Origin: an uncultured Bacilli bacterium
Lineage (GTDB): Bacteria; Bacillota_I; Bacilli_A; RF39; UBA660
DNA length: 64,000 nt
NCBI GenBank assembly: GCA_947623825.1
Contig: CANQHQ010000001.1
Coordinates: 17,736-81,735, forward strand
Direction of reading: 5' to 3'
The position numbers and the translations under genes are program-made. The notes under the pieces are model-generated. The model saw only the letters and a list, made by a program, of their open reading frames with translations. It had not been told where the DNA came from and made no database searches. Position 1 is the stretch's first letter. Each line of letters opens with the position of its first letter. Positions 2,086 to 17,962 of this stretch are shown here, piece after piece.

Positions 2086-2187
2086 TCTATCTCCTTTTCT
2101 TCTTTCTATTCAATTTATGTAGATTCATCCAAAATATGTATGAGAAATCCTAGTCAAATTTATCTAAATAAAGTTGAGAGAACAGGA

Positions 2188-3825
2188 TTAATGGGATTCT
2201 TTCTTTTCATTTAATTGTTGATATTTCAAGACCGTTTCTTTTTTATAGTAGTCTAGTGTTCCTTCGGGTAAAATTAAAGTTCGTTCCACTCCTAATCGGT
2301 CGACAAACTCTGGATTATGAGAAACTAAAATCATCGTCCCGGGAAAGGTTTTTAGATTTTCTGCCATGACTCGTTGTGTTTCAGGGTCCAAGTGATTGGT
2401 TGGTTCATCTAGAATGAGGAGATTCGCTTTCTGAAGCGTTAATTTCGCAAGGGACAATCGAGATCGTTCTCCTGGAGAAAGGACCGACGCTTTCTTGTAA
2501 AAGTCTTCCTTTGTAAAAAGAAATTTTCCAAGAACTCCTCGTGCTTGTTGTTCACTTAAATCAAATTCTTTGAGATTTTCCATTAGATTTTTATCTAGGT
2601 CGATGAGTTCGTGTTCTTGGGCATAATATCCAATATCTGTTTTGGGACCTAAAATAATTTTTCCAGAATCTGGAGTTAGAATTCCAACAATCAATTTTAA
2701 TAGAGTGGTTTTACCAACTCCATTTTCACCAACAATTAAAAACTTTTCTCCACGAGGAATTTCTAAGTGAATTTTATACAGTAAATTTCGTTTCGAATTT
2801 TTATCATACTTAAAACAAAGATCTTCGATTCTAAGAGGAAAAGAGGTGCTTTCTCTTCCTTGATGAAGTTGAATCGTAGCTGTTTTTTTCTCTTTTTCAA
2901 CGACGACGGCATGTTCTTCTAATCTTGCCAATTTTTTCTGACGATCTTTCGCAATCTTTGCTTTTTTCTCGTTTCCATGAATATATTTATCGATAATTTT
3001 TTGGAGATGTTCTCTTTCTTTTTCTTGTAATTCTGCTTCTTTTTTTAATCTTGTTTTTCTTTCTACTAAGATTTTTTCAAATTGTTGATAATTCCCATGA
3101 AAAAGTTCCATCGTATGATGATTTTTATCTAAGTATAACGTATCTTCTGTCACAGCATTTAAGAAGGCAATGTCGTGAGAAATAATGAGAACCGTTCCTT
3201 CATATTTTTTGAGATAATCGATGACAAAGTCTTTGGTATTTTGATCTAAATGGTTTGTGGGTTCGTCTAATAAAAGCATTTCGGGCATCGAGTACAATAG
3301 TCTTAGAAACGCGATTTTAGATTTTTGTCCACCTGACAAGGTACAAAGAGGTTGATCGAGCATTTCATTCTCTAACTGCATTCCTGAAATGAGTTTCAAT
3401 AATTCTTCTTCTGCCTGATATGGTTTATAATAATCTAGTTCCATTTGGTATTGATTTACTTTATTTAAAAGAGTATTGATTTCTTTTTCATTTGAACTCA
3501 TAGCTGCTTTTTCGTAACATTCTTGTATCTTTTTTTCTAAAGAAGCAATCGGTCGACCTGTGAGTAAATAGTCTAATACTGTCATATCCGTAGAGGGGAT
3601 TTCGTCTGTAATTACTTGTGGGAGCCAAGAAATTCTTGTCTTCTTAGAAAACGTAATGGTCCCTGAGTCTGGTTCTAATTGATGAAGAAGCATTCGAAAA
3701 AAAGTCGTTTTTCCTGCCCCATTGACACCGATAATACCGATTTTTCTTCCTTCGGGTAATTGGATATTTACATTTTCAAAAATGGTTTCTATTCCAAAAG
3801 AAAAATTCAAATTTTTAATTATCAC
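2188..3825 (-). CDS. ABC-F family ATPase (two nucleotide-binding domains, no transmembrane domain)
   Basis: Two Walker A motifs (GVNGAGKTT and GENGVGKTT). Two ABC signature motifs (LSGGQKSKIAF and LSPGERSRLSLA). A charged coiled-coil linker rich in K/E/Q separates the halves. Length is 545 aa. Confidence 0.85.
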   Translation of the reverse strand: MIIKNLNFSFGIETIFENVNIQLPEGRKIGIIGVNGAGKTTFFRMLLHQLEPDSGTITFSKKTRISWLPQVITDEIPSTDMTVLDYLLTGRPIASLEKKIQECYEKAAMSSNEKEINTLLNKVNQYQMELDYYKPYQAEEELLKLISGMQLENEMLDQPLCTLSGGQKSKIAFLRLLYSMPEMLLLDEPTNHLDQNTKDFVIDYLKKYEGTVLIISHDIAFLNAVTEDTLYLDKNHHTMELFHGNYQQFEKILVERKTRLKKEAELQEKEREHLQKIIDKYIHGNEKKAKIAKDRQKKLARLEEHAVVVEKEKKTATIQLHQGRESTSFPLRIEDLCFKYDKNSKRNLLYKIHLEIPRGEKFLIVGENGVGKTTLLKLIVGILTPDSGKIILGPKTDIGYYAQEHELIDLDKNLMENLKEFDLSEQQARGVLGKFLFTKEDFYKKASVLSPGERSRLSLAKLTLQKANLLILDEPTNHLDPETQRVMAENLKTFPGTMILVSHNPEFVDRLGVERTLILPEGTLDYYKKETVLKYQQLNEKKESH

Positions 3826-3949
3826 AGGACCACCATCCTTTCTACCGATATTTTATCAAAAACAGAGAGAATCATCAACCAAAGAAAAATGAAAAAAAAT
3901 AGTAGTCAAACCGAAAAAAATATGTTACTATAAATGAGTAAAAAGAAAT

Positions 3950-4025
3950 GCCGACTTAGCACAGCTGGTAGTGCAACGCACTCGTAACGCGTAGGTCACT
4001 GGTTCAAATCCGGTAGTCGGCACCA
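3950..4025 (+). tRNA. tRNA-Thr (anticodon CGT)
   Basis: GCCGACTTAGCACAGCTGGTAGTGCAACGCACTCGTAACGCGTAGGTCACTGGTTCAAATCCGGTAGTCGGCACCA folds as a cloverleaf. T-loop is TTCAAAT, anticodon loop is CTCGTAA, and CCA is encoded. Confidence 0.85.
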
Positions 4026-4035
4026 GATGGATACC

Positions 4036-4064
4036 AAACTCGGACTATTATAGTTCGAGTTTTA
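4036..4064 (+). terminator. hairpin plus T-run downstream of tRNA-Thr
   Basis: AAACTCG ...13 nt... CGAGTTT followed by TTTTAAAATT. Confidence 0.4.
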
Positions 4065-4188
4065 AAATTCTTTAATTTATGCTACAATTTTTATAGTTTA
4101 AATGGAGATGTTTGTCAATTCAGAAAATACACTTTCATATTGACAATTCAATTATACTTTGAAATCTACATAATGGAGGGTTTAGTGT

Positions 4189-4779
4189 ATGTCTAATAAA
4201 GAAATATTAGAAAATATAAAAAAATTATCAAAACAAGAAAAAAGAAATTTTTCTTATGATAATTTAGTTGAAATAATGAGTAAGTTAGAAACGAATGAAA
4301 TTATTGAATTAAGCAATATTATTGGCTATCCAGTATTTACAAGATTATGTATGGGAGCATTAAAACATAAATTTGTTTTATTACAAGATGGAGCAGCAGC
4401 TATTATCGTAAATGAAAAGGGACAAATTTTACTTCAATCAAGAGCAGATAATGATAAATGGGGACTTCCTGGTGGGTGTCAAGAATTGGGAGAAAGATTG
4501 GAAGATACGATAATTCGTGAAGTGAAGGAAGAAACAAATTTAGATATAACAGAGGATAATTTAGAGTTGATAGCCATTGTTTCTGGTAATAGTAGAAGAA
4601 ATGAATATCCAAATGGAGATGTCGTTATTAATAATACAGCTTTATATTGTGTTAAAAATTATTCAGGAACATTAAAATGGGATGAGGAATCCAAAAATAT
4701 GAAATTTTTTGATTTAGATAATTTACCTATAAATCAAAATGATCCGGATTTAATTGCAATTTATAGAAAATCAATATAA
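4189..4779 (+). CDS. NUDIX hydrolase
   Basis: Nudix box GLPGGCQELGERLEDTIIREVKEETNL matches GX5EX7REUXEEXGU. RBS GGAGGG lies upstream. Confidence 0.8.
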   Translation: MSNKEILENIKKLSKQEKRNFSYDNLVEIMSKLETNEIIELSNIIGYPVFTRLCMGALKHKFVLLQDGAAAIIVNEKGQILLQSRADNDKWGLPGGCQELGERLEDTIIREVKEETNLDITEDNLELIAIVSGNSRRNEYPNGDVVINNTALYCVKNYSGTLKWDEESKNMKFFDLDNLPINQNDPDLIAIYRKSI

Positions 4780-4898
4780 TAAAACTTGCAAAAAAATCCA
4801 TATTGTGATAACATGTATTTAGCAAGGAAATTTGCATAAAATAAAAAAGGGAACATTCAGTTTTTCCGTGTTGAATGTCTACCCACTATATTGTGTTA

Positions 4899-8771: not shown

Positions 8772-10256
8772 CTAAACTTTTTCATTTGGATTTGGATGAT
8801 TCATATACAATCCTTTTTTCAATTGTTTGTGTCCACCTACAGAGAATTTGGCTTTCGATTCTTCTTTTGGTTTAATTAAGTGGACATGGAACCGTTTTAA
8901 TGTGGCTCCTGATAAAGAAGGATCTCCAAAGCGAAGACATAAAGCCCCTCCTGAGATATCGTACTGAAGCGATAAATCTAACCATATATTTTGCAAATCG
9001 TTCCACATGGCATCCGTAATTTGTTCTTTTTGATATACAGGATAACGTGCGACGATTAAGAACTGCTCCTCGACTCCTTCGTAAGGAAACCGATTTTTGG
9101 AAATGTACCAGTAGTCTGTGACTCTCATAATCTCTTGGTCGATATATTTTGGATCTAATGGGTCTTTTCCTTGGGCTTCCATATCTAACATGATATCTAA
9201 TTGTTTTTGTTCTCGGGCGTTTGGTGGATAAATGTATTGATAAGCATTCATATCCCCTAGAATAGGACTGGTAGACTCTATCTTTTTCTTTTCTTCTAAT
9301 ATCGGAATCGTTTGAACTCCATGCTTTTCCGCAAGGGCGTGAGAACGTTTACTCCAATTTCTTTCTGGGTGATCTTCTAGATAATATACCTGTTTTACTC
9401 CCTTATCGATTAAGACTTTCATACATTCGTCACAAGGAAATAAGGTTGTCCAAATCGGAGTATCTAAGGTTTTCACTTCTCCTAATTTTTTTAATAGATT
9501 CATTTCTGCGTGTTCTGTCGTTGCGTAGTAGAGTTCGGTACGATTTTCTATGTCATATTTTGAAAGACTAAAATCGGTTTGATTGGTTCCAAAAAACCAA
9601 GTTCCATTCCAAAAACATCCGGCAGCGACAGGACATACCCAGTCAGTAGAATCTTCTAGATGATGAATTAACATAGGAATTGGTTCAGGCATCTCTTCCT
9701 GGTGACCGATTCTTTTACACATCTCTATCACGGCTTGTTTTACTTTTTCACTGACTTCTTTAAATTTTTTTCCTTTTCCGGAAATCATAATTTTTCGAAT
9801 TTTATCAGAGGTAGATGTCTCTGACTGTCTTGGTAAAATCGCCACTCTACCACAAATTTCTTCTAGTTTTTTTATGTCTTCATCAGAATAATTATCCTTA
9901 ATGGCAACCAAAACATCGGGTCTCACTAATCGAATGAGTCCCCATTTTGGTTCGTCTACTTCTTTCACGACGACACTATTGGCAATATTTAATAACTTGA
10001 TAAATTCATAGCGCTCTTCTTCGGGGATAATCGGTCGTGTTTCCCCTTTTCTCTTTCTGATTTTTTCATCACTATCCATCGCTACAATCAAATAGTCGCA
10101 TAATTTTCTCGCTTCCAAAATATAGCGAAGATGACCAATATGAAATAAATCCCAGGAACCCTGAACCAAACCAATGGTTTTTTCTTCCCTTCTTGCCTTT
10201 TCCAACTCTTTCAAGAAGTCTTCTTTCATTTTTTGTTGTTCTTCTTTTGCGATCAT
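8772..10256 (-). CDS. three-domain fusion of a TagD/RfaE-II-like cytidylyltransferase, a dCMP-deaminase-like zinc deaminase and a HIT-like domain
   Basis: Residues 26-150 carry GSWDLFHIGHLRYILEARKLCDYLIVAMDSDE (HxGH nucleotidyltransferase motif). This is collinear with TagD [34 protein letters not shown]. Residues about 200-330 carry HAEMN ... PCDECMKVLIDKGVKQVYY (CDA/dCMP deaminase zinc motifs). The C-terminus carries ...SGATLKRFHVHLIKP, which aligns to the Hint QSVYHVHLHVL histidine-triad region with the third His absent. The start codon lies 2 nt after the stop of the upstream ThyA-like gene. Confidence 0.7.
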   Translation of the reverse strand: MIAKEEQQKMKEDFLKELEKARREEKTIGLVQGSWDLFHIGHLRYILEARKLCDYLIVAMDSDEKIRKRKGETRPIIPEEERYEFIKLLNIANSVVVKEVDEPKWGLIRLVRPDVLVAIKDNYSDEDIKKLEEICGRVAILPRQSETSTSDKIRKIMISGKGKKFKEVSEKVKQAVIEMCKRIGHQEEMPEPIPMLIHHLEDSTDWVCPVAAGCFWNGTWFFGTNQTDFSLSKYDIENRTELYYATTEHAEMNLLKKLGEVKTLDTPIWTTLFPCDECMKVLIDKGVKQVYYLEDHPERNWSKRSHALAEKHGVQTIPILEEKKKIESTSPILGDMNAYQYIYPPNAREQKQLDIMLDMEAQGKDPLDPKYIDQEIMRVTDYWYISKNRFPYEGVEEQFLIVARYPVYQKEQITDAMWNDLQNIWLDLSLQYDISGGALCLRFGDPSLSGATLKRFHVHLIKPKEESKAKFSVGGHKQLKKGLYMNHPNPNEKV

Positions 10257-10258
10257 TT

Positions 10259-11176
10259 TTAAATACCTACGGGGATATCTTTGATTTTCTCGTGTGGATG
10301 ATAATCGCTGAGTTCAAAATCATCCTTACGATAATCCGAGATTCTTTCATGTTTTTTTACGAGTTTTAATGTTGGAAAAGGTCTACTTTCTCTCGATAAG
10401 ATTTCTTCTACCCAAGGCATTTGATCTTCATAAATATGGGCATCCGATATGAGATGGATAAATTCTTGTGGTTCTAAATCTAATACTTCGGACATCGCAA
10501 TGAGTAAGGCAGAATATTGAACCCAATTGGTTACACAACCGACTAGGACATCACAACTTCTCTGAAACATAACCATACTTAATTTTCCATTTAGAATTCG
10601 AAAATGCACCCATCCATGACAAGGCGCCACCACTACTTTTTGTTGATGGTCGATGTTTCGAATTGTGTACTGTGGAATCCATGGAGAAATAAAATGGGTT
10701 TTTAATTCTGGTCTTTCTTTCATTTGCTTCGTGATTTCTTCAAACTGATTGAATCCTTGTCCATCTACCGTAGGGAAATTGGCAAAAGCAGCACCATAAG
10801 AACCGGGTCCTAAATCTCCTGTTTCCAATCCTCTTTTGGCGCATTTTTTTTCGGTCACCCAAGCCTTCCACCAACGGCAACCAAACTCTTGTAATTCTTG
10901 TTGGGTTCTAGCACCATTAATGAAAGCACATAACTCTCCAATTCCCGCTTTCCAAAAACCAGAAATATCTCTTTCGGTGATAAAAGGAACCCCATTTTCT
11001 AATAAATTGAAACGAAGAGGAGTCGCTCCCATATAGTCGATGGTCCGTACTTCTTGCCCGTTTTTATCGACCATCGGAGAAGGTCCCCAAGTTCCCTTTT
11101 CTAGAATTTCTCGAATTAAATTTTTGTACTGTTCGTCCGGTGTTCGCTCTTCGTAAGGTGTATATTTGTTTTCCAT
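10259..11176 (-). CDS. thymidylate synthase (ThyA) family protein, divergent and 305 aa long
   Basis: Collinear with E. coli ThyA across its length. Shared motifs are RFNL, GDLGP, APCHGWVHF (catalytic PCH Cys), FQRSCDV, SDAHIY and C-terminal RPFPTLKL ... DYHPH. The folate-binding region between the RFNL and GDLGP motifs is replaced and lengthened. Confidence 0.8.
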   Translation of the reverse strand: MENKYTPYEERTPDEQYKNLIREILEKGTWGPSPMVDKNGQEVRTIDYMGATPLRFNLLENGVPFITERDISGFWKAGIGELCAFINGARTQQELQEFGCRWWKAWVTEKKCAKRGLETGDLGPGSYGAAFANFPTVDGQGFNQFEEITKQMKERPELKTHFISPWIPQYTIRNIDHQQKVVVAPCHGWVHFRILNGKLSMVMFQRSCDVLVGCVTNWVQYSALLIAMSEVLDLEPQEFIHLISDAHIYEDQMPWVEEILSRESRPFPTLKLVKKHERISDYRKDDFELSDYHPHEKIKDIPVGI

Positions 11177-11271: not shown

Positions 11272-11811
11272 CTATTCATTTACTTCAAAGTAGTGATTAA
11301 TCGAAGAAAAGTTGTTTACTTTTTTAATCAATTCCTCTTCTTCCCGTAGTTCATTCATATTGACATTTGTTATTTTTTCTACATGTCTTGCCACGTAATC
11401 GAAACTTCCGATTACCAATTTTTCTCCATAGTCAATGGCTGCATAAGTGTTGGTTTGATAAGTTTCTTGATTGGCTTCTTTCTTTACTTCGCGAAAAGAA
11501 TCGATGGAATGAAACCCCGATAGATTTCGTATCGTATTCGAACAGAGTTGATAACAATAGTTAGAATCATCCGTATAGCGTATCGTTTTTAGGGAAAACA
11601 GGCTGTTTTCTTTGTTGACATAGGCATCCATTTCCTCGCACATCTCTTCGGAACTTCTCAATCCTTTTAAAATGTTTAAGAGATTGCTTAAATTTTCTGA
11701 CATACATTTTAAAAAATAGTTTTTTCCGTCAAAATAGACCGGAGAAACAAGGATGGGTCTTTTTCCTATGAGAACGCCCGAGAAGTCATAGATTCCAACC
11801 AATTTTTTCAT
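11272..11811 (-). CDS. hypothetical protein (179 aa), first gene of the ThyA-like / fusion operon
   Basis: Same strand. A 95-nt gap separates it from the ThyA-like gene. No motif recognised. Confidence 0.45.
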   Translation of the reverse strand: MKKLVGIYDFSGVLIGKRPILVSPVYFDGKNYFLKCMSENLSNLLNILKGLRSSEEMCEEMDAYVNKENSLFSLKTIRYTDDSNYCYQLCSNTIRNLSGFHSIDSFREVKKEANQETYQTNTYAAIDYGEKLVIGSFDYVARHVEKITNVNMNELREEEELIKKVNNFSSINHYFEVNE

Positions 11812-11943: not shown

Positions 11944-13170
11944 CTACTTCGTAATTTTTTTTGCTCCTTTGATTCCCTTGACTCCATTCATTTCAGAGAA
12001 TCCTTTTAAGATATTGGATTCAAAAGAATGAACTTTTTCTGTTCGTTTCTTGTAATCTTTAATCCCAATATTAATCATGTCATCTAATAACTCTGAGTAA
12101 TCTTTTCCAATCGGAGACCATAGATAGAAGGAAAGAGATCCTGGGATATTATTGACTTCATTGATGTATACTTTCTTGTTCTCTTTATCAATTAAGAAAT
12201 CAATTCGTACGACTCCCGAAGATTTCAAGGTCTTAAATGCTTTTACGGCGATTTCTTCCACTTCTTCGCGTAAGTTATCTTCTATTTTTGCAGGAACCAC
12301 TCTCGATGCGCTTGCCATTCCTTTACTGGTTCCTTTATATTTTGCTCCTCTTAGTTTTCCTTTGCTTTTTCCATTCCCAATGTATTTGTCTGCATAGGTT
12401 AAAAAAGCGTTTTTCGGAGTTACTTCTTCGATGGCACTGACTTGTTGATTTTCGTAATTTCCTAATACACTAATATTTACTTCCATTAGGTTTTCGACGA
12501 CTTTTTCTACGACGACACGACTGTCATAGGTCACGGCATTTTCTAATCCCTGAATTAATTCTTCTCGATCATGTGCCACGGAAATTCCTACACTACTACC
12601 TAAGGTACATGGCTTGATAATTACTGGGTATTTTAATTTTTCTATTTTCGCGATTACTTCATCGGGATTTTCTTCATAATCTACATCATAAAACCAAGTA
12701 TAAGGAGAAACAGGAATCTTTTCTTGTTCAAAAATCTGTTTCATGAAGATTTTATCCTGTCCTACCACGGCGGCATATACATCGACCCCTACAAATGGAA
12801 TACCAATGGATTGAAGGTATCCTTGTAGTACTCCATCTTCCACATTGGTTCCATGCACAATCGGAAAAGCCATATCTATTTCCGCTACAATCTTACGGAA
12901 TATTCCTTTCTTATTTTCAAGGACAAATTTATCTTTTTTCGCATAGAGAACCACATTTTTACAATATCTTTTGATGAGATCCATATCTTGAAATGTTTCG
13001 ATATCTTTTAATGCTTCTCCTGTATACCATTCTCTATCTTTGGTAATATAGATAGGAATAATCTCGTATTTCTCTCCATCCATTTTATTCATTGCTTGTA
13101 CGGCAGAGATAATGCTCACCTCATGTTCTACACTTTCTCCACCGAAAATTACACCAATTCTAATTTTCAT
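11944..13170 (-). CDS. ddl: D-alanine--D-alanine ligase (ATP-grasp)
   Basis: N-terminal KIRIGVIFGGESVEHEVSIISAVQ is typical of Ddl. It has an ATP-grasp architecture and sits directly downstream of a MurF-like gene. Confidence 0.8.
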   Translation of the reverse strand: MKIRIGVIFGGESVEHEVSIISAVQAMNKMDGEKYEIIPIYITKDREWYTGEALKDIETFQDMDLIKRYCKNVVLYAKKDKFVLENKKGIFRKIVAEIDMAFPIVHGTNVEDGVLQGYLQSIGIPFVGVDVYAAVVGQDKIFMKQIFEQEKIPVSPYTWFYDVDYEENPDEVIAKIEKLKYPVIIKPCTLGSSVGISVAHDREELIQGLENAVTYDSRVVVEKVVENLMEVNISVLGNYENQQVSAIEEVTPKNAFLTYADKYIGNGKSKGKLRGAKYKGTSKGMASASRVVPAKIEDNLREEVEEIAVKAFKTLKSSGVVRIDFLIDKENKKVYINEVNNIPGSLSFYLWSPIGKDYSELLDDMINIGIKDYKKRTEKVHSFESNILKGFSEMNGVKGIKGAKKITK

Positions 13171-13180
13171 TCTTTCACTC

Positions 13181-14764
13181 CTAATCTTTTAAATCGTCAT
13201 CACTTTCAAAAAGCGCATAGATTTTCTTTTTTGTTTCCATTTGTTGTAATAAAGTATATGCGTCGGCTACTTCGTTTACGATATAGATTTTTTCTTTTTC
13301 AAAGCCACTTTCTATTAGACCTTGAAAAACCGACTTTGTACTCTTTTCATTTATCAGTATAACATAATTTGCAACTTTTGCTACCTGTGTTCCAAAAATA
13401 TTGTTTAACTCTTCTGTCTTTTCCCCTAGATTTTGCATTCCGGTGGTGATCACAACTTTGATTCCTGGCATGAGTTCTAATACATCTAAGGCATCTTTCG
13501 CTCCTAGAGGATTGGAACGATGGGTATTGTTCATTTGATACATATAACCAAAATCATGCATATCTAAATGATTTTCTAACGGACGTAAATCCTCGATCAC
13601 AGGAAGAATTTCTTCTACTTCAAGCCCTAAAATCCGGGCCAAAGCGATGACCGATAGAATATGATAAATGTTATGTTTTCCTAATAATTTCGTTCTTACT
13701 TTGTATTTTTGATTGGTATCTTTTTCCCAAACAGAGAAAGAAGTTCCTTCTCTACTATATTGAATTTCCTGCGCTAGATAATCCGCTGGTTGTTCTAGAG
13801 AAATCCAAATTTTTTGACAAGCGATTTCTCCTGGATACTCTACCTGTTCCCAATCATCTTTATTGAGAATAGCCACTCCTTCTTTTGGAAGAGATTCGAT
13901 TAATTCAAACAAAGCATTGACCGTGTTGTCTTTGGTTCCAAAAGAAGTAATTTGGTTAATTTCAATGGTTGTTAAAATGGCAAATTGGGGATGAATTAAA
14001 TCACAAATACTTTGAACAACACCTGGTTTATAGGCACCCATCTCCGCAATCAAAAGTTCTTCTTCGGGATCTAGATAACTGTTTACGGAAGAGACCATTC
14101 CATGTAAAGTATTGACATTTTTTGGCGTCGATTGACAGATATACTTTTTCTTTAGAACTTCCTCTAAAATGTATTTTGTACTTGTTTTTCCATAAGTACC
14201 TGTGATTCCTACCACTTTTAAGTCCTTCATTTTTTCAAGTTTTACTTGGGCTTTTTGCCATTCGTATCTTTCAATTGTTCTTTCTACTGGTCGATTGAGA
14301 CGATAACAAAACCAAACTATGAAATAGTTAAAATACGTGATGATGGTTTCCAAAGTCAACCATAAATATCCATCTTTATAATCCGTTATGTAAATCATGA
14401 TGGGGAGAAAATAACAAAGGGCAATCGTACCAATCAACCTTTTCATTTTTTTCGTTAAAATCAATTTCTTTGGTTGATATTCTTTATATAAAGAGGTAAT
14501 TCGTAATAATTCAAAAAAACAACCGATATCTCCTAGTATGACAAGGAAAACAGAAATTTCATCTTCGAGAAAATAAGCTAGTAGAAAGAGAAAAAATGAA
14601 AAAAACTCTAGGGAAAAGAAAACGATTCTTTTATTTTCTTTTATCCATATAAAATATTTTCCATCTTCGTTGTAAACTTTTTTCTGAAACATTTCTAACA
14701 TAAATTCTGTTTTAACGATTACGAGAAAAACAACACAAATAAGGGATAAGATTACTAAATACAT
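13181..14764 (-). CDS. Mur ligase family protein (MurF-like) fused to an N-terminal polytopic membrane domain of about 170 aa
   Basis: Mur ligase P-loop VVGITGTYGKTSTKYILEEVL with central and C-terminal Mur ligase domains, next to ddl. Residues 1-170 contain several hydrophobic helices. Only a 12-nt gap separates it from the upstream hydrolase gene, which supports the long ORF. Confidence 0.65.
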   Translation of the reverse strand: MYLVILSLICVVFLVIVKTEFMLEMFQKKVYNEDGKYFIWIKENKRIVFFSLEFFSFFLFLLAYFLEDEISVFLVILGDIGCFFELLRITSLYKEYQPKKLILTKKMKRLIGTIALCYFLPIMIYITDYKDGYLWLTLETIITYFNYFIVWFCYRLNRPVERTIERYEWQKAQVKLEKMKDLKVVGITGTYGKTSTKYILEEVLKKKYICQSTPKNVNTLHGMVSSVNSYLDPEEELLIAEMGAYKPGVVQSICDLIHPQFAILTTIEINQITSFGTKDNTVNALFELIESLPKEGVAILNKDDWEQVEYPGEIACQKIWISLEQPADYLAQEIQYSREGTSFSVWEKDTNQKYKVRTKLLGKHNIYHILSVIALARILGLEVEEILPVIEDLRPLENHLDMHDFGYMYQMNNTHRSNPLGAKDALDVLELMPGIKVVITTGMQNLGEKTEELNNIFGTQVAKVANYVILINEKSTKSVFQGLIESGFEKEKIYIVNEVADAYTLLQQMETKKKIYALFESDDDLKD

Positions 14765-14776
14765 AGGTCCCTCCGA

Positions 14777-15493
14777 TTAAATAAAATTTTTAAGGATGGC
14801 AACTACCTGTGGTAAGGCTTCTAAATAAGCATAATGGGTATATCCTTCCAATTCAATGAGTGCCCCATCTTTTAATAATTTTTCTAATTTTTTGGCGTCT
14901 TCGATAGGAGCGGCTTCATCTAACGTTCCCCAAATCAAGAGTGTCGGACATTCGATTTTTTGGGCATATTCTGACAAATCTTGATTGACTACTCGAACTA
15001 AAATATTTCTCATCATGGGAGTTGCTTGGCGGTAATCGGTCGATCCGATATATTTTTTGGCATACTCTCCTATTTTTTTCATACCGGGTAATTTCTTCAC
15101 TGATTTAAAAACAGATTCTTTGAAAGATTTCCGGTCGCTTCTCACACAAGGACTCCCGAATAACACCAACTTCTCTACTGGATTTTTCGCCGCATAACCG
15201 ATGGCTACCCGTCCTCCAAAAGAATGTCCCATCACGATTGGCTTTTTAATTTTTAATTGATCTAACAATTCTTCTAATACGGTCACATAATCTTCGATTG
15301 CCCATACTTCTGTTGGTTCTTCAGAATCACCAAAACCCGGAAAATCAAGAATGGTTGTCCGGTAATTGGGTAATTCGTTCGCTAGAGGAACCATCATCGC
15401 TATATTTTGACCCCATCCGTGAAGTAATACTATATCGTTTCCTTCGCCATATTGTTCATAATGAATTGATAATCCTTTGATCTTTGCTTCCAT
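14777..15493 (-). CDS. alpha/beta-fold hydrolase
   Basis: GHSFGG nucleophile-elbow motif and HGWG oxyanion region. Confidence 0.7.
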   Translation of the reverse strand: MEAKIKGLSIHYEQYGEGNDIVLLHGWGQNIAMMVPLANELPNYRTTILDFPGFGDSEEPTEVWAIEDYVTVLEELLDQLKIKKPIVMGHSFGGRVAIGYAAKNPVEKLVLFGSPCVRSDRKSFKESVFKSVKKLPGMKKIGEYAKKYIGSTDYRQATPMMRNILVRVVNQDLSEYAQKIECPTLLIWGTLDEAAPIEDAKKLEKLLKDGALIELEGYTHYAYLEALPQVVAILKNFI

Positions 15494-15554: not shown

Positions 15555-16094
15555 TTACTCTTTTTGTCTTGTTTTTTTGTTATTTTCTTCCTTTATGTAA
15601 ATCGTTTGATACTGTCTTTCTATTTTTCCTTCTAATTCTAAAAGATAAAGATAGTATTCTATCTGTGAAAATCTTACTTTTTTTGTTCCCTGACTTCCTT
15701 TTTCGGCACACGAAGTTAGGAAGGAATAGAGAACGTTTTCCGGTGGCTCTTTTCTTTGATACGGTTTTTTTCTTTCTTCGAAGTATTCTATCGCCCAACG
15801 AGTACTACATTTTTCAATTGCGTAGCGAAAAAGACTATTTCCTTCTAGAAAATGATGGTGGAAATAACTGAGATAGGCTTGTAAATCTAGGCTTTCTTTT
15901 AGTTCTTCTTTCATTTTTTGTTGTTCTTCTTCGGAAAGGTGATATCTACATGCATCGATCAGTTCTTGCTTTTTTTCCATTTCGATGGGAAATGTTTTTT
16001 TTCTCTTTTCTTCCTGGGTTGCCAAATCCAATTCTTTATAAATTCCAATTTCGTACTTTTTTCTGATTCTTTCAAATTTTTTTTCGAGATCCAT
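15555..16094 (-). CDS. hypothetical protein (179 aa)
   Basis: ORF only. Confidence 0.4.
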   Translation of the reverse strand: MDLEKKFERIRKKYEIGIYKELDLATQEEKRKKTFPIEMEKKQELIDACRYHLSEEEQQKMKEELKESLDLQAYLSYFHHHFLEGNSLFRYAIEKCSTRWAIEYFEERKKPYQRKEPPENVLYSFLTSCAEKGSQGTKKVRFSQIEYYLYLLELEGKIERQYQTIYIKEENNKKTRQKE

Positions 16095-16181: not shown

Positions 16182-16940
16182 TCATATTTGGTTTAAAATT
16201 TCTCTAAATCGTCTTTCTTTTTCGGAATCTTTGGAAGAGTCGATCCATGTAACGACTCCTTCTCTTTCCTCTTGCACTAGATTCTTCTCTTTTAGTCTAC
16301 GTTCTAATTCTTTGGCAATTCCTTCTCCTCCATCGAAGAATGTCACAGGTCCCAGTTCTCGCCGAATTGCTTCTTTGATGAGGGGATAATGGGTACAACC
16401 TAATACAACGTTTTCTATTTTTCTTTCTTTATAAGGACTTAGATATTGCGTTAATAGTTTTTCTTGTTCTTCTTTCTGATTATCTTCGATGGCTTTCGCG
16501 AGGAAAGGACATTCTTGAAGATAAGTTCGGTGATTGTCATATTTGTGAAACAGGTTTTGAAATCTTTCACTTTCTAACGTACCTGGTGTTGCCATGACTA
16601 AGGTGTTTTTCTCTCTAGCGAAATCATGAACCATTTTATAGGCTGGTTCAATTCCTATGAAAATGAAATCTGGATATTGTTTTCTTATTTCGTCAATGGC
16701 TAAAGCGGTCGCCGTATTACAGGCAAAAACAATGGCTTTACATCCTTGTTTCATCAAAAAAGAAACAATTTCACTGACATACTCTAATACTTCTTTCTGG
16801 CTTTTTTCTCCGTAAGGATTATGCCTCGAATCACTATAATAAATATAATCCTCTTGTGGTAATCGTTTCCTTATTTCTTTTAGAACCGTAATTCCACCAA
16901 TTCCAGAGTCCAATATCCCAATTGGATGATTTTTCAACAT
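16182..16940 (-). CDS. murI: glutamate racemase
   Basis: IGILDSGIGGITV, FACNTATA and GCTHYP are motifs of the Asp/Glu racemase family. Confidence 0.85.
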   Translation of the reverse strand: MLKNHPIGILDSGIGGITVLKEIRKRLPQEDYIYYSDSRHNPYGEKSQKEVLEYVSEIVSFLMKQGCKAIVFACNTATALAIDEIRKQYPDFIFIGIEPAYKMVHDFAREKNTLVMATPGTLESERFQNLFHKYDNHRTYLQECPFLAKAIEDNQKEEQEKLLTQYLSPYKERKIENVVLGCTHYPLIKEAIRRELGPVTFFDGGEGIAKELERRLKEKNLVQEEREGVVTWIDSSKDSEKERRFREILNQI

Positions 16941-16957: not shown

Positions 16958-17962
16958 TTACTCACTCCACAACTGTTTTTTTGTCTTTGCTTCTTCTTTC
17001 TCTTCTTCGGGTTCTTCCTGTACCATCGCATCTTCCAAAATACAAGAAACATAATCGTCAAGATTTTCTAATTCTGGATGAAGACGATACCATGAAACAA
17101 TCCATTTTAAAGACTGTGGTAATTGAGCCATTTCTGTATAGAAAGAATCAAACGCCTTATTTCTTGTTTCTTCCCAATTCTCTACTGATAAATATTGACG
17201 ATTTAAAATAGAACGATCTTTCTCGTTTTCTAGGGAACAATAAAGAATCTGTCGATTTTCTTTTAAATTGATTTCTACTTCATAAGTAAGATTGGATGGC
17301 TTCCATAATTGAAGTGGTAATTCGATTGGTTCGTCCTTCTCTTGTTCTTCTGTTTTTTCGATTTGTTGAAAAATTTCTTGTTTTTGTTTCGCAATATATA
17401 AATCTTCAATGGCTTTCGTATTTTCTTTATAAAACTCCATAATGGATTTAGGAAGATCTTCAAACGATTTGGCTCCCTCACAGAATTTTACATTTTTTCC
17501 ATCCGTAACCGCATGAGGAAAGAATCCAATCGTATCTTTTCCATACGAAAAAGTTACTTTCTTTGGTGGACAAGTACGAATCATTTTTAACTCCATCCAC
17601 AAGTCACTTACAAAATCGACTCCTTCTAAGGAGAAATTAAAAATACCAAAATTCGTATGCTTTAAAATAGGTAATCCTGGATAAGCCTCCTTTACGGCAT
17701 GAAATTCTAGATGATTACGGGCAAATATTTGAAGATATTCTGATGAAAGAAGAACCGGTCTTTCACTGTAATATCTTTTTAAAAGTTCTCTTAGTTCTTT
17801 AAACGTAATTCCATCTGTCTTTTTGGTTTCCTTAAATTCTTCTAGTTGTTCTTCGGAAACATTTTTCATCTGATTCATGTAATCTAATTCTTTCTCTACT
17901 GTTTTCATAACTTTCCTCTTTTCTATTTTATTTTTTTCTTCTTTTTTTGTCACATTCAGCAA
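16958..17962 (-). CDS. hypothetical protein (334 aa)
   Basis: ORF only. Confidence 0.4.
   Translation of the reverse strand: MLNVTKKEEKNKIEKRKVMKTVEKELDYMNQMKNVSEEQLEEFKETKKTDGITFKELRELLKRYYSERPVLLSSEYLQIFARNHLEFHAVKEAYPGLPILKHTNFGIFNFSLEGVDFVSDLWMELKMIRTCPPKKVTFSYGKDTIGFFPHAVTDGKNVKFCEGAKSFEDLPKSIMEFYKENTKAIEDLYIAKQKQEIFQQIEKTEEQEKDEPIELPLQLWKPSNLTYEVEINLKENRQILYCSLENEKDRSILNRQYLSVENWEETRNKAFDSFYTEMAQLPQSLKWIVSWYRLHPELENLDDYVSCILEDAMVQEEPEEEKEEAKTKKQLWSE

Follow-up and report, generated by a model that had tools for sequence, protein, structure and literature searches.

A 64-kb stretch of DNA from an uncultured Bacilli bacterium (contig CANQHQ010000001.1; hereafter the window, meaning the whole stretch and not the feature under study) encodes a 527-residue membrane-anchored MurF-family ligase, referred to here as TM-MurF. 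The gene is located between those for an alpha/beta-fold serine hydrolase and a D-Ala-D-Ala ligase, and the three form a cassette that recurs in relatives. The open reading frame (ORF) and its immediate surroundings comprise:

13181..14764, minus strand: whole ORF, 527-residue membrane-anchored MurF-family ligase (TM-MurF), from the ORF list, Pfam, NCBIfam, full-length homologues and an AlphaFold2 (AF2) model
14769..14774, minus strand: Shine-Dalgarno sequence GGAGGG, 5 nt 5′ of the ATG at 14764, from sequence inspection
14777..15493, minus strand: alpha/beta-fold serine hydrolase with an intact GHSFG nucleophile elbow, from Pfam and NCBIfam
11944..13170, minus strand: D-Ala-D-Ala ligase (ddl) with an omega-loop insertion, from NCBIfam NF002528 (298.5 bits against a cutoff of 262)
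16182..16940, minus strand: glutamate racemase murI, two genes upstream, from Pfam Asp_Glu_race, and near the cassette in a few relatives too

The reading frame is open throughout all 527 codons. An earlier note on this DNA, made from the sequence alone, had placed an ORF with the Mur ligase P-loop upstream of ddl, leaving the strand unstated, and had pointed to a 12-nt gap after the hydrolase gene and an uninterrupted frame. All of this was borne out, and the strand is minus. The 12 nt separating the hydrolase stop codon from the TM-MurF ATG are TCGGAGGGACCT, and the ddl start codon is found 10 nt past the TM-MurF stop codon. The peptidoglycan setting implied in the same note is likewise apparent, with ddl and murI present here and murD and murE in relatives.

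A dedicated membrane domain at the N-terminus

The features of the N-terminal region, including its transmembrane (TM) helices and the position it takes relative to the uridine diphosphate (UDP)-binding domain of MurF, are:

14231..14764, minus strand: N-terminal membrane domain, residues 1–178, N-out/C-in, in place of the MurF UDP-binding N-domain, from hydropathy, the positive-inside rule and AF2
within residues 1–178, minus strand: TM helices at approximately 2–18, 47–65, 70–88, 109–127 and 133–154, with an interfacial helix at 33–43, from hydropathy on 103 sequences and AF2
14669..14698, minus strand: cytoplasmic motif 1, residues 23–32, just past TM1, consensus LHMLQQNLYN (position 30 also given as x), from alignments
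14435..14473, minus strand: cytoplasmic motif 2, residues 98–110, ahead of TM4, consensus KKPLVxTKRVKRL (also given as KKPLVxTxRVKR) with R109 invariant, from alignments
14282..14302, minus strand: cytoplasmic motif 3, residues 155–161, at the end of TM5, consensus xINxPIE (also given with one more residue in front, NxINxPIE) with N157, P159 and E161 conserved, from alignments

Hydropathy of the window protein alone revealed four segments above 1.5 plus a weaker fifth, while averaging over 103 family members gave five conserved hydrophobic segments (residues ~1–20, 46–66, 69–91, 107–131 and 131–156). The number of Lys and Arg residues per sequence, determined for the same 103 members, was 5.4 in loop 19–46, 6.7 in loop 89–108 and 5.7 after TM5, compared to 0.4 and 0.4 in the two short outside loops. 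By the positive-inside rule, this bias places the N-terminus outside and the ligase part in the cytoplasm, as required for an ATP-dependent enzyme. The earlier note had counted at least four hydrophobic helices in the first 170 codons and proposed a topology prediction; the count was correct as a minimum, the number being five in an N-out/C-in arrangement. The AF2 model of the N-terminal region is all-helical, with a predicted local distance difference test score (pLDDT) of 88–91 (91.4 for the domain alone), and that of the whole protein has a pLDDT of 88 and a predicted template modelling score of 0.76.

Across 38 diverse members, Q27, Y31, W40, R109, E161 and A172 are invariant, and N29, K98, L101, T104, R106, T113, N157 and P159 are at least 90% conserved. 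The window protein retains Q27, Y31, W40, R109 and E161. Its motif 1 reads LEMFQKKVYN and is partly degenerate, as the invariant Q27 and Y31 are present and H24 has been lost in the subclade to which the window protein belongs. Comparison of this domain with that of a 76%-identical orthologue gave 0.21 nonsynonymous versus 0.75 synonymous differences per site. A Pfam search assigned the domain to no family, yielding a sub-threshold match to DUF4271 only, and a Foldseek search of the domain model against the PDB found no relative at E up to 0.001. In an exhaustive phmmer search of 1.84 billion representatives, every occurrence of the domain was N-terminal, in proteins of ~525–534 residues or their evident truncated fragments, and no other architecture carrying it was found. 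The conservation of the region together with its occurrence on the TM-MurF ligase only shows that it is a dedicated, constrained membrane domain, and neither a generic anchor nor an annotation artefact.

The ligase module and its gene cassette

The remainder of the protein comprises:

13184..14230, minus strand: cytoplasmic MurF-type ligase, residues 179–527 (Mur middle and C-terminal domains)
14174..14209, minus strand: intact ATP-binding P-loop GITGTYGKTSTK, residues 186–197, with K193 invariant in 103 sequences

The Pfam Mur_ligase_M family (PF08245) matches residues 187–376 with an E-value of 3e-30. Among NCBIfam models, the best match is TIGR01143 (murF, EC 6.3.2.10) at 147.7 bits, well ahead of MurE and MurD, with profile positions 65–396 aligned to residues 172–511. 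The ~64 N-domain positions of this profile have no counterpart in the window protein, in agreement with the earlier proposal that membrane helices stand in place of the soluble N-terminal domain of MurF. The same note had recognised both a central and a C-terminal ligase domain. The former is clearly matched, while the latter gives only a weak match of 19 bits to Mur_ligase_C. MurF was the top-scoring family each time other members were scored (P0003 185 bits, typical members 236–244 bits). A sequence search of the PDB returned MurF structures as all top five matches (3zl8, 1gg4, 4qdi, 4ziy and 4cvk; E 6e-23 to 4e-20), covering residues 175–475 only.

A PgsB/CapB identity, which the earlier note had put forward as an alternative to be decided by comparing profiles, was rejected. 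NCBIfam gave 24 families with E up to 0.01, none of them PgsB/CapB, and MurF ranks first by hidden Markov model, sequence and fold. The MurT models NF045635 and NF052464 score 28.9 and 26.3 bits, respectively, against cutoffs of 800, and neither a DUF1727 match nor an adjacent glutaminase gene was found. On these profile and structure-database affinities, the ligase module is assigned to the MurF type. No second Mur ligase is encoded within the 64-kb window.

We define the TM-MurF family by a five-TM N-domain and a MurF-type ligase within a hydrolase/ligase/Ddl cassette. The window protein displays collinear full-length homology to the family, the N-domain motifs and the cassette synteny. A scan using one genome per species identified at least 591 relatives, the best 80 of which (L001–L080) were used to compare loci. 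The gene order hydrolase, TM-MurF, Ddl is found in 66–69 of these 80 loci, with the hydrolase gene directly 5′ of TM-MurF (position −1) in 66 and ddl at position +1 in 68. The hydrolase is cytoplasmic, its best named match being a sub-threshold one to an EstV-type lipase model, and its PDB relatives are generic only. The cassette Ddl contains a Gly/Lys-rich omega-loop insertion of ~20 residues (residues ~263–290 of the window Ddl) that ends in SKGMxSxxR-x-PA and is without counterpart in S. aureus Ddl. This insertion is present in all cassette Ddls examined among L001–L080, varying in length and retaining the motif from gut metagenome-assembled genomes (MAGs) to Bacillaceae. It may be the signature of a subfamily of Ddl co-evolving with TM-MurF. 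Alignment to S. aureus Ddl shows that the window Ddl keeps the Tyr of the 'KY' pair, which typifies D-Ala-D-Ala and not D-Ala-D-Lac ligases, and the protein passes the curated Ddl model and not the VanA-G models.

Further peptidoglycan genes are found near the cassette in relatives. One gut MAG (L001) encodes, upstream of the cassette, a MurL-like ORF (2116–3471; NF041275, E 2e-65, below cutoff) that overlaps the start of a bona fide MurD (3461–4816). The window lineage has murI instead, and the L001 pair hints at a route to D-Glu in uncultured Bacilli in which L-Glu would be added and then epimerised. MurE is encoded directly downstream of TM-murF in L052 (11597–12952, where it replaces Ddl) and in L062. 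MurD and MurE are the sole other Mur ligases that turned up in the neighbourhoods of the 80 loci. That the organism is walled follows from further products of the window: a PASTA kinase accompanied by a PP2C phosphatase, and an NlpC/P60 hydrolase. As a separate observation, L052 (8101–9963) and L068 (8125–9939) each contain an ORF of ~600–620 residues directly upstream of TM-murF; both begin MCG(I/F) and are, by eye, candidate asparagine synthetases.

The best 120 homologues are mostly 507–557 residues long (two are shorter fragments), and nearly all cover 94–100% of the protein at 40–76% identity. Most of the best 80 loci come from MAGs of uncultured gut or rumen organisms with the labels Bacilli, Tenericutes or Mycoplasmatota. 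Aquibacillus, Pseudalkalibacillus, Sporosalibacterium, Gorillibacterium and Clostridia MAGs also have full-length members. A search seeded with the Aquibacillus protein added the cultured halo- and alkaliphilic Bacillales Gracilibacillus, Evansella cellulosilytica, Salipaludibacillus, Alteribacillus, Salibacterium, Alkalicoccus and Geomicrobium, as well as some Paenibacillus and MAGs labelled Negativicutes or Clostridiaceae. In RefSeq these proteins are named MurF or 'Mur ligase family protein'. No plasmid-borne copies were found, as all 86 plasmid matches cover the ligase part only. Two unusual occurrences were observed. A MAG labelled Bacteroides (L073) has, on a 40-kb contig, a full-length member with 32% identity and an adjacent 365-residue Ddl; either the genes were transferred out of Bacillota or the binning or labelling is wrong. 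One Hadza-gut MAG (CAKOXL01) has two TM-murF/ddl loci on different contigs (L003 and L007), both with canonical catalytic residues; either the locus is truly duplicated or the bin is mixed.

Active-site changes and proposed function

The window protein belongs to a subclade of 14 members, which was compared to 303 others in an alignment of 317 sequences. The positions concerned are:

13952..13954, minus strand: Q271, replacing the conserved Mg-binding His of Mur ligases (99% of the 303 others have H here), from alignments
13910..13912, minus strand: L285, aligned to E. coli MurF K202, from alignment to 1gg4
13526..13663, minus strand: H368, H399, N413 and R416, remodelled adenine/ribose-binding site region, from alignments

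The 303 others keep H271 (99%), N368 (100%), R399 (100%), D413 (100%), N416 (99%) and E445 (99%). In the subclade, the substitutions N368H, R399H and D413N occur in 14 of 14 members and N416R in most, with position 271 occupied by Q, N, K or S. Position 285 is Lys in 100 of 103 members, and K285L is found only in the window protein and its closest relative (P0002). Compared to E. coli and T. maritima MurF, the motif AHLE becomes NQIT, DDxYNxNP becomes NNTHRSNP and a conserved Arg becomes His. We take the His, the second Asn, the Arg and the Asp to be among the seven residues usually called invariant in the Mur-ligase superfamily, and K202 of E. coli MurF is presumably the carbamylated Lys of the MurD/E/F literature. 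Retained in the window protein are the P-loop, K193, E241, N301, D303, D304 and N365. The motif 1 His, H24, is 95% conserved elsewhere and absent from all 14 subclade sequences, which are also those without the catalytic His, Asn, Arg and Asp; this coincidence links motif 1 of the N-domain to the catalytic site. None of the 14 subclade proteins matches Pfam Mur_ligase_C, in contrast to nearly all other full-length members listed.

The subclade gene occurs in the same cassette and the same PolC-proximal context as other members, and is thus an orthologue and not a stray paralogue. The hydrolase and Ddl of the subclade evolve at normal rates, unlike the accelerated TM-MurF. For the window gene and its 76%-identical orthologue, the ratio of nonsynonymous to synonymous rates (dN/dS) was determined to be 0.088 for TM-MurF overall and 0.070 for the ligase part, compared to 0.048 for ddl and 0.062 for the hydrolase gene, with synonymous sites near saturation. 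The window TM-MurF gene is under purifying selection and is not decaying. We read the subclade change as a remodelled nucleotide/metal site rather than decay, as suggested by the pattern of substitutions. That the window protein is a working enzyme with altered nucleotide handling is the weakest step of this argument.

At roughly even confidence, we propose that the ORF encodes a membrane-anchored D-Ala-D-Ala-adding enzyme of the MurF branch, with the ATP site remodelled here. In this model the five helices would hold the cytoplasmic ligase module at the membrane's inner face. Motifs 1–3 on the cytoplasmic side, with their polar and aromatic residues, would most likely form the surface that binds the nucleotide-sugar end of the substrate in lieu of the N-domain. 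The most likely reaction would be the ATP-dependent addition of D-Ala-D-Ala, supplied by the distinctive Ddl co-transcribed with TM-MurF and the serine hydrolase, to UDP-N-acetylmuramic acid (MurNAc)-tripeptide. As this would take place at the membrane, the pentapeptide precursor would be released beside MraY.

Several observations weigh against this proposal. The match of the window protein to Mur_ligase_C lies under the cutoff of 28.4 bits, and all tested members fall below the curated TIGR01143 cutoff of 288.6 bits, partly because profile positions 1–64 are unmatched. The window copy carries H271Q, N368H, R399H, D413N and K285L, and with the loss of residues conserved at 99–100% elsewhere its classical MurF activity is not to be assumed. 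The ratio of TM-MurF to Ddl identity is 0.57–0.68 for the subclade versus others, compared to 0.83–0.97 for typical members. In two complete Bacillaceae genomes the cassette is located among non-housekeeping genes, and in Aquibacillus kalidii (L069 12927–13649) a VanX/DdpX-type D-Ala-D-Ala dipeptidase (Peptidase_M15, E 2e-22) is encoded directly after ddl. In these large genomes the cassette may be accessory, and not the housekeeping MurF.

With its Mg-binding His, three ATP-site residues (Asn, Arg and Asp) and the K202-aligned Lys lost, the window copy could instead be a pseudo-ligase, non-catalytic or strongly impaired. Its role would then be regulatory or that of a membrane scaffold, for example for Ddl, MraY or the hydrolase, while a MurF encoded elsewhere in the genome performs the reaction. 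We consider this unlikely. The variation at position 271, as if constraint were gone, the acceleration of TM-MurF relative to ddl and the hydrolase gene and the missing Mur_ligase_C match in the whole subclade are in its favour. The P-loop, E241, N301, D303, D304 and N365 are nevertheless intact, and the dN/dS of the ligase part is near that of the neighbouring genes. N368H, R399H, D413N and N416R are fixed or nearly so across the 14 sequences, which looks remodelled and not decayed. Furthermore, ddl is still tightly coupled and well conserved, the window offers no second Mur ligase to take over, and MurT is active without the His (PMC6085368).

The complete absence of the UDP-binding N-domain, with a polytopic domain carrying conserved motifs at the cytoplasmic membrane face in its stead, also raises the question of whether the substrate is lipid-linked. 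In a MurT-like scheme, D-Ala-D-Ala would be added to undecaprenyl-pyrophosphoryl-MurNAc-tripeptide (lipid I/II), with the membrane domain binding the polyprenyl-pyrophosphate end. MurT itself provides the precedent of a Mur-family enzyme without the conserved His that is active on lipid I/II (PMC6085368). We regard this scheme as quite unlikely, since MurF is a far nearer relative of the ligase module than MurT is (26–29 bits for the MurT models). MraY would in addition have to process UDP-MurNAc-tripeptide routinely, and the Q, N, Y, W and R motifs could equally bind uridine diphosphate. A combined version, in which the whole family acts on lipid I/II-tripeptide after MraY, the N-domain binds undecaprenyl-pyrophosphate and the subclade is a further derivative with a rebuilt nucleotide/Mg site, seems to us very doubtful. 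The rebuild in the subclade (three new His, one new Arg and the K202-aligned Lys lost) could reflect a different phosphoryl donor or metal.

We hold it to be equally doubtful that the cassette makes another product, be it an accessory van-like alternative dipeptide or the attachment of a dipeptide to some other membrane-associated carboxylate, with the hydrolase as third catalytic component. The unexplained serine hydrolase and the unusual omega-loop-insertion Ddl would be accommodated by such a role, as would the variable non-housekeeping surroundings in large Bacillaceae genomes and the VanX-type dipeptidase adjoining the cassette in Aquibacillus. However, the 'KY' Tyr and model assignment of the Ddl speak for D-Ala-D-Ala, the cassette of small-genome Bacilli sits with murD, murE, murI and the MurL-like ORF, and neither PgsB, PgsC or PgsA features nor plasmid-borne copies were found. 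Lastly, it is extremely improbable that the membrane part is an annotation artefact and that translation from M107 or M179 yields a soluble truncated ligase, a start that we rejected given that the Shine-Dalgarno sequence precedes the first ATG with none comparable ahead of either internal Met, that residues 1–178 keep their length, hydropathy, motifs and invariant residues in full-length homologues from gut MAGs to cultured Bacillaceae, and that these residues are under purifying selection. The view of the earlier note that the membrane part is really translated is thus upheld, with the upstream region conserved over its full length.

The proposal of a membrane-anchored D-Ala-D-Ala-adding enzyme has several implications. 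A large Bacillota family swaps the substrate-recognition N-domain for a dedicated polytopic membrane domain, a design that thousands of Firmicutes have in common. Hence, precursor completion in the carriers may have a physical link to the membrane, and their way of recognising the substrate must be unlike that of the studied MurF enzymes. As TM-MurF does not reach the curated cutoff for MurF (at any rate that of the NCBIfam model used), the family bears on pathway reconstruction. The conserved hydrolase and omega-loop-insertion Ddl point to an uncharacterised three-protein module. The window subclade, having lost invariant residues yet remaining under purifying selection, shows what the Mur-ligase fold can lose and still be kept. 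The interest would be higher should the lipid-linked reading or a functional remodelled active site prove true.

Neighbouring genes and comparison with known systems

Other genes of the window merit brief mention. A 494-residue protein (8772–10256, minus strand) combines an N-terminal cytidylyl/adenylyl-transferase-like domain with a dCMP/cytidine-deaminase-like domain and weakly matches an anti-phage dCTP deaminase model. Its gene adjoins thyA (10259–11176), and the thymidylate synthase adjacency is kept in the closest relative. A 607-residue protein (18907–20730, minus strand) has a prepilin-type methylation motif at its N-terminus and is otherwise without a recognised domain; several pilin-like ORFs flank TM-murF in L004–L006. 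Three ORFs on the minus strand, 15555–16094 (179 residues), 16958–17962 (334 residues) and 11272–11811 (179 residues), have no Pfam or NCBIfam match. They interleave with murI, the cassette and thyA, and the two closest relatives have similarly sized counterparts at the same positions.

The general description of MurC–F is of soluble enzymes of the cytoplasm, and MurF has been validated as an antibiotic target. Compared to MurF proper (TIGR01143; 1gg4, 3zl8, 4qdi), which contains a UDP-binding N-domain, TM-MurF carries a membrane domain of five helices (~175 residues) with motifs of its own and scores below the curated cutoff. The window copy moreover is without the His, Asn, Arg, Asp and Lys. 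The gene order also differs, as hydrolase-murF-ddl in the cassette contrasts with what we take to be ddl-murF in Bacillus. PgsB/CapB is an ATP-dependent amide ligase of the Mur/FolC superfamily that is membrane-associated via an N-terminal hydrophobic segment. The window gene has no pgsC/pgsA (capC/capA) neighbours, its ligase is specifically MurF-like, and the TM-MurF membrane domain is polytopic with conserved motifs and not a simple anchor.

MurT, a subunit of the lipid II isoglutaminyl synthase (6fqb, 6gs2), resembles the window protein in having a Mur-ligase fold without a functional UDP-binding N-domain, and both are without the conserved Mg-binding His (PMC6085368). MurT works at the membrane on lipid I/II and not on UDP-linked precursors, the uridine that Mur ligases bind through their N-domain being absent from its lipid II substrate, and it is active despite the missing His (PMC6085368). 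In contrast to TM-MurF, it is a soluble protein with a DUF1727 C-terminal domain, and it depends on the glutaminase GatD, for which the window protein has no neighbouring gene.

Natural Mur chimeras include MurE-MurF, MurG-MurC, MurC-MurB, MurC-Ddl, MurD-FtsW and MraY-MurG, and these, some of them fused to integral membrane proteins, have been proposed to aid complex formation and channelling (PMC10214165). MurD-FtsW and MraY-MurG thus provide a precedent for Mur enzymes fused to membrane proteins (PMC10214165). The partner in TM-MurF is, however, a dedicated membrane domain and no known pathway enzyme, and it replaces a MurF domain and is not added to a complete one. The chimera survey would have missed TM-MurF because only proteins of more than 600 residues were considered (PMC10214165).

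For RF39, RFN20 and ML615J-28, a genomic study reports that steps of peptidoglycan synthesis are missing without explanation, and its supplement holds no murF entries (PMC10868615). Sub-threshold scoring of TM-MurF may contribute to these missing steps. Full-text literature searches found no description of a membrane-anchored MurF. TM-MurF proteins are already present in RefSeq under MurF-type names.

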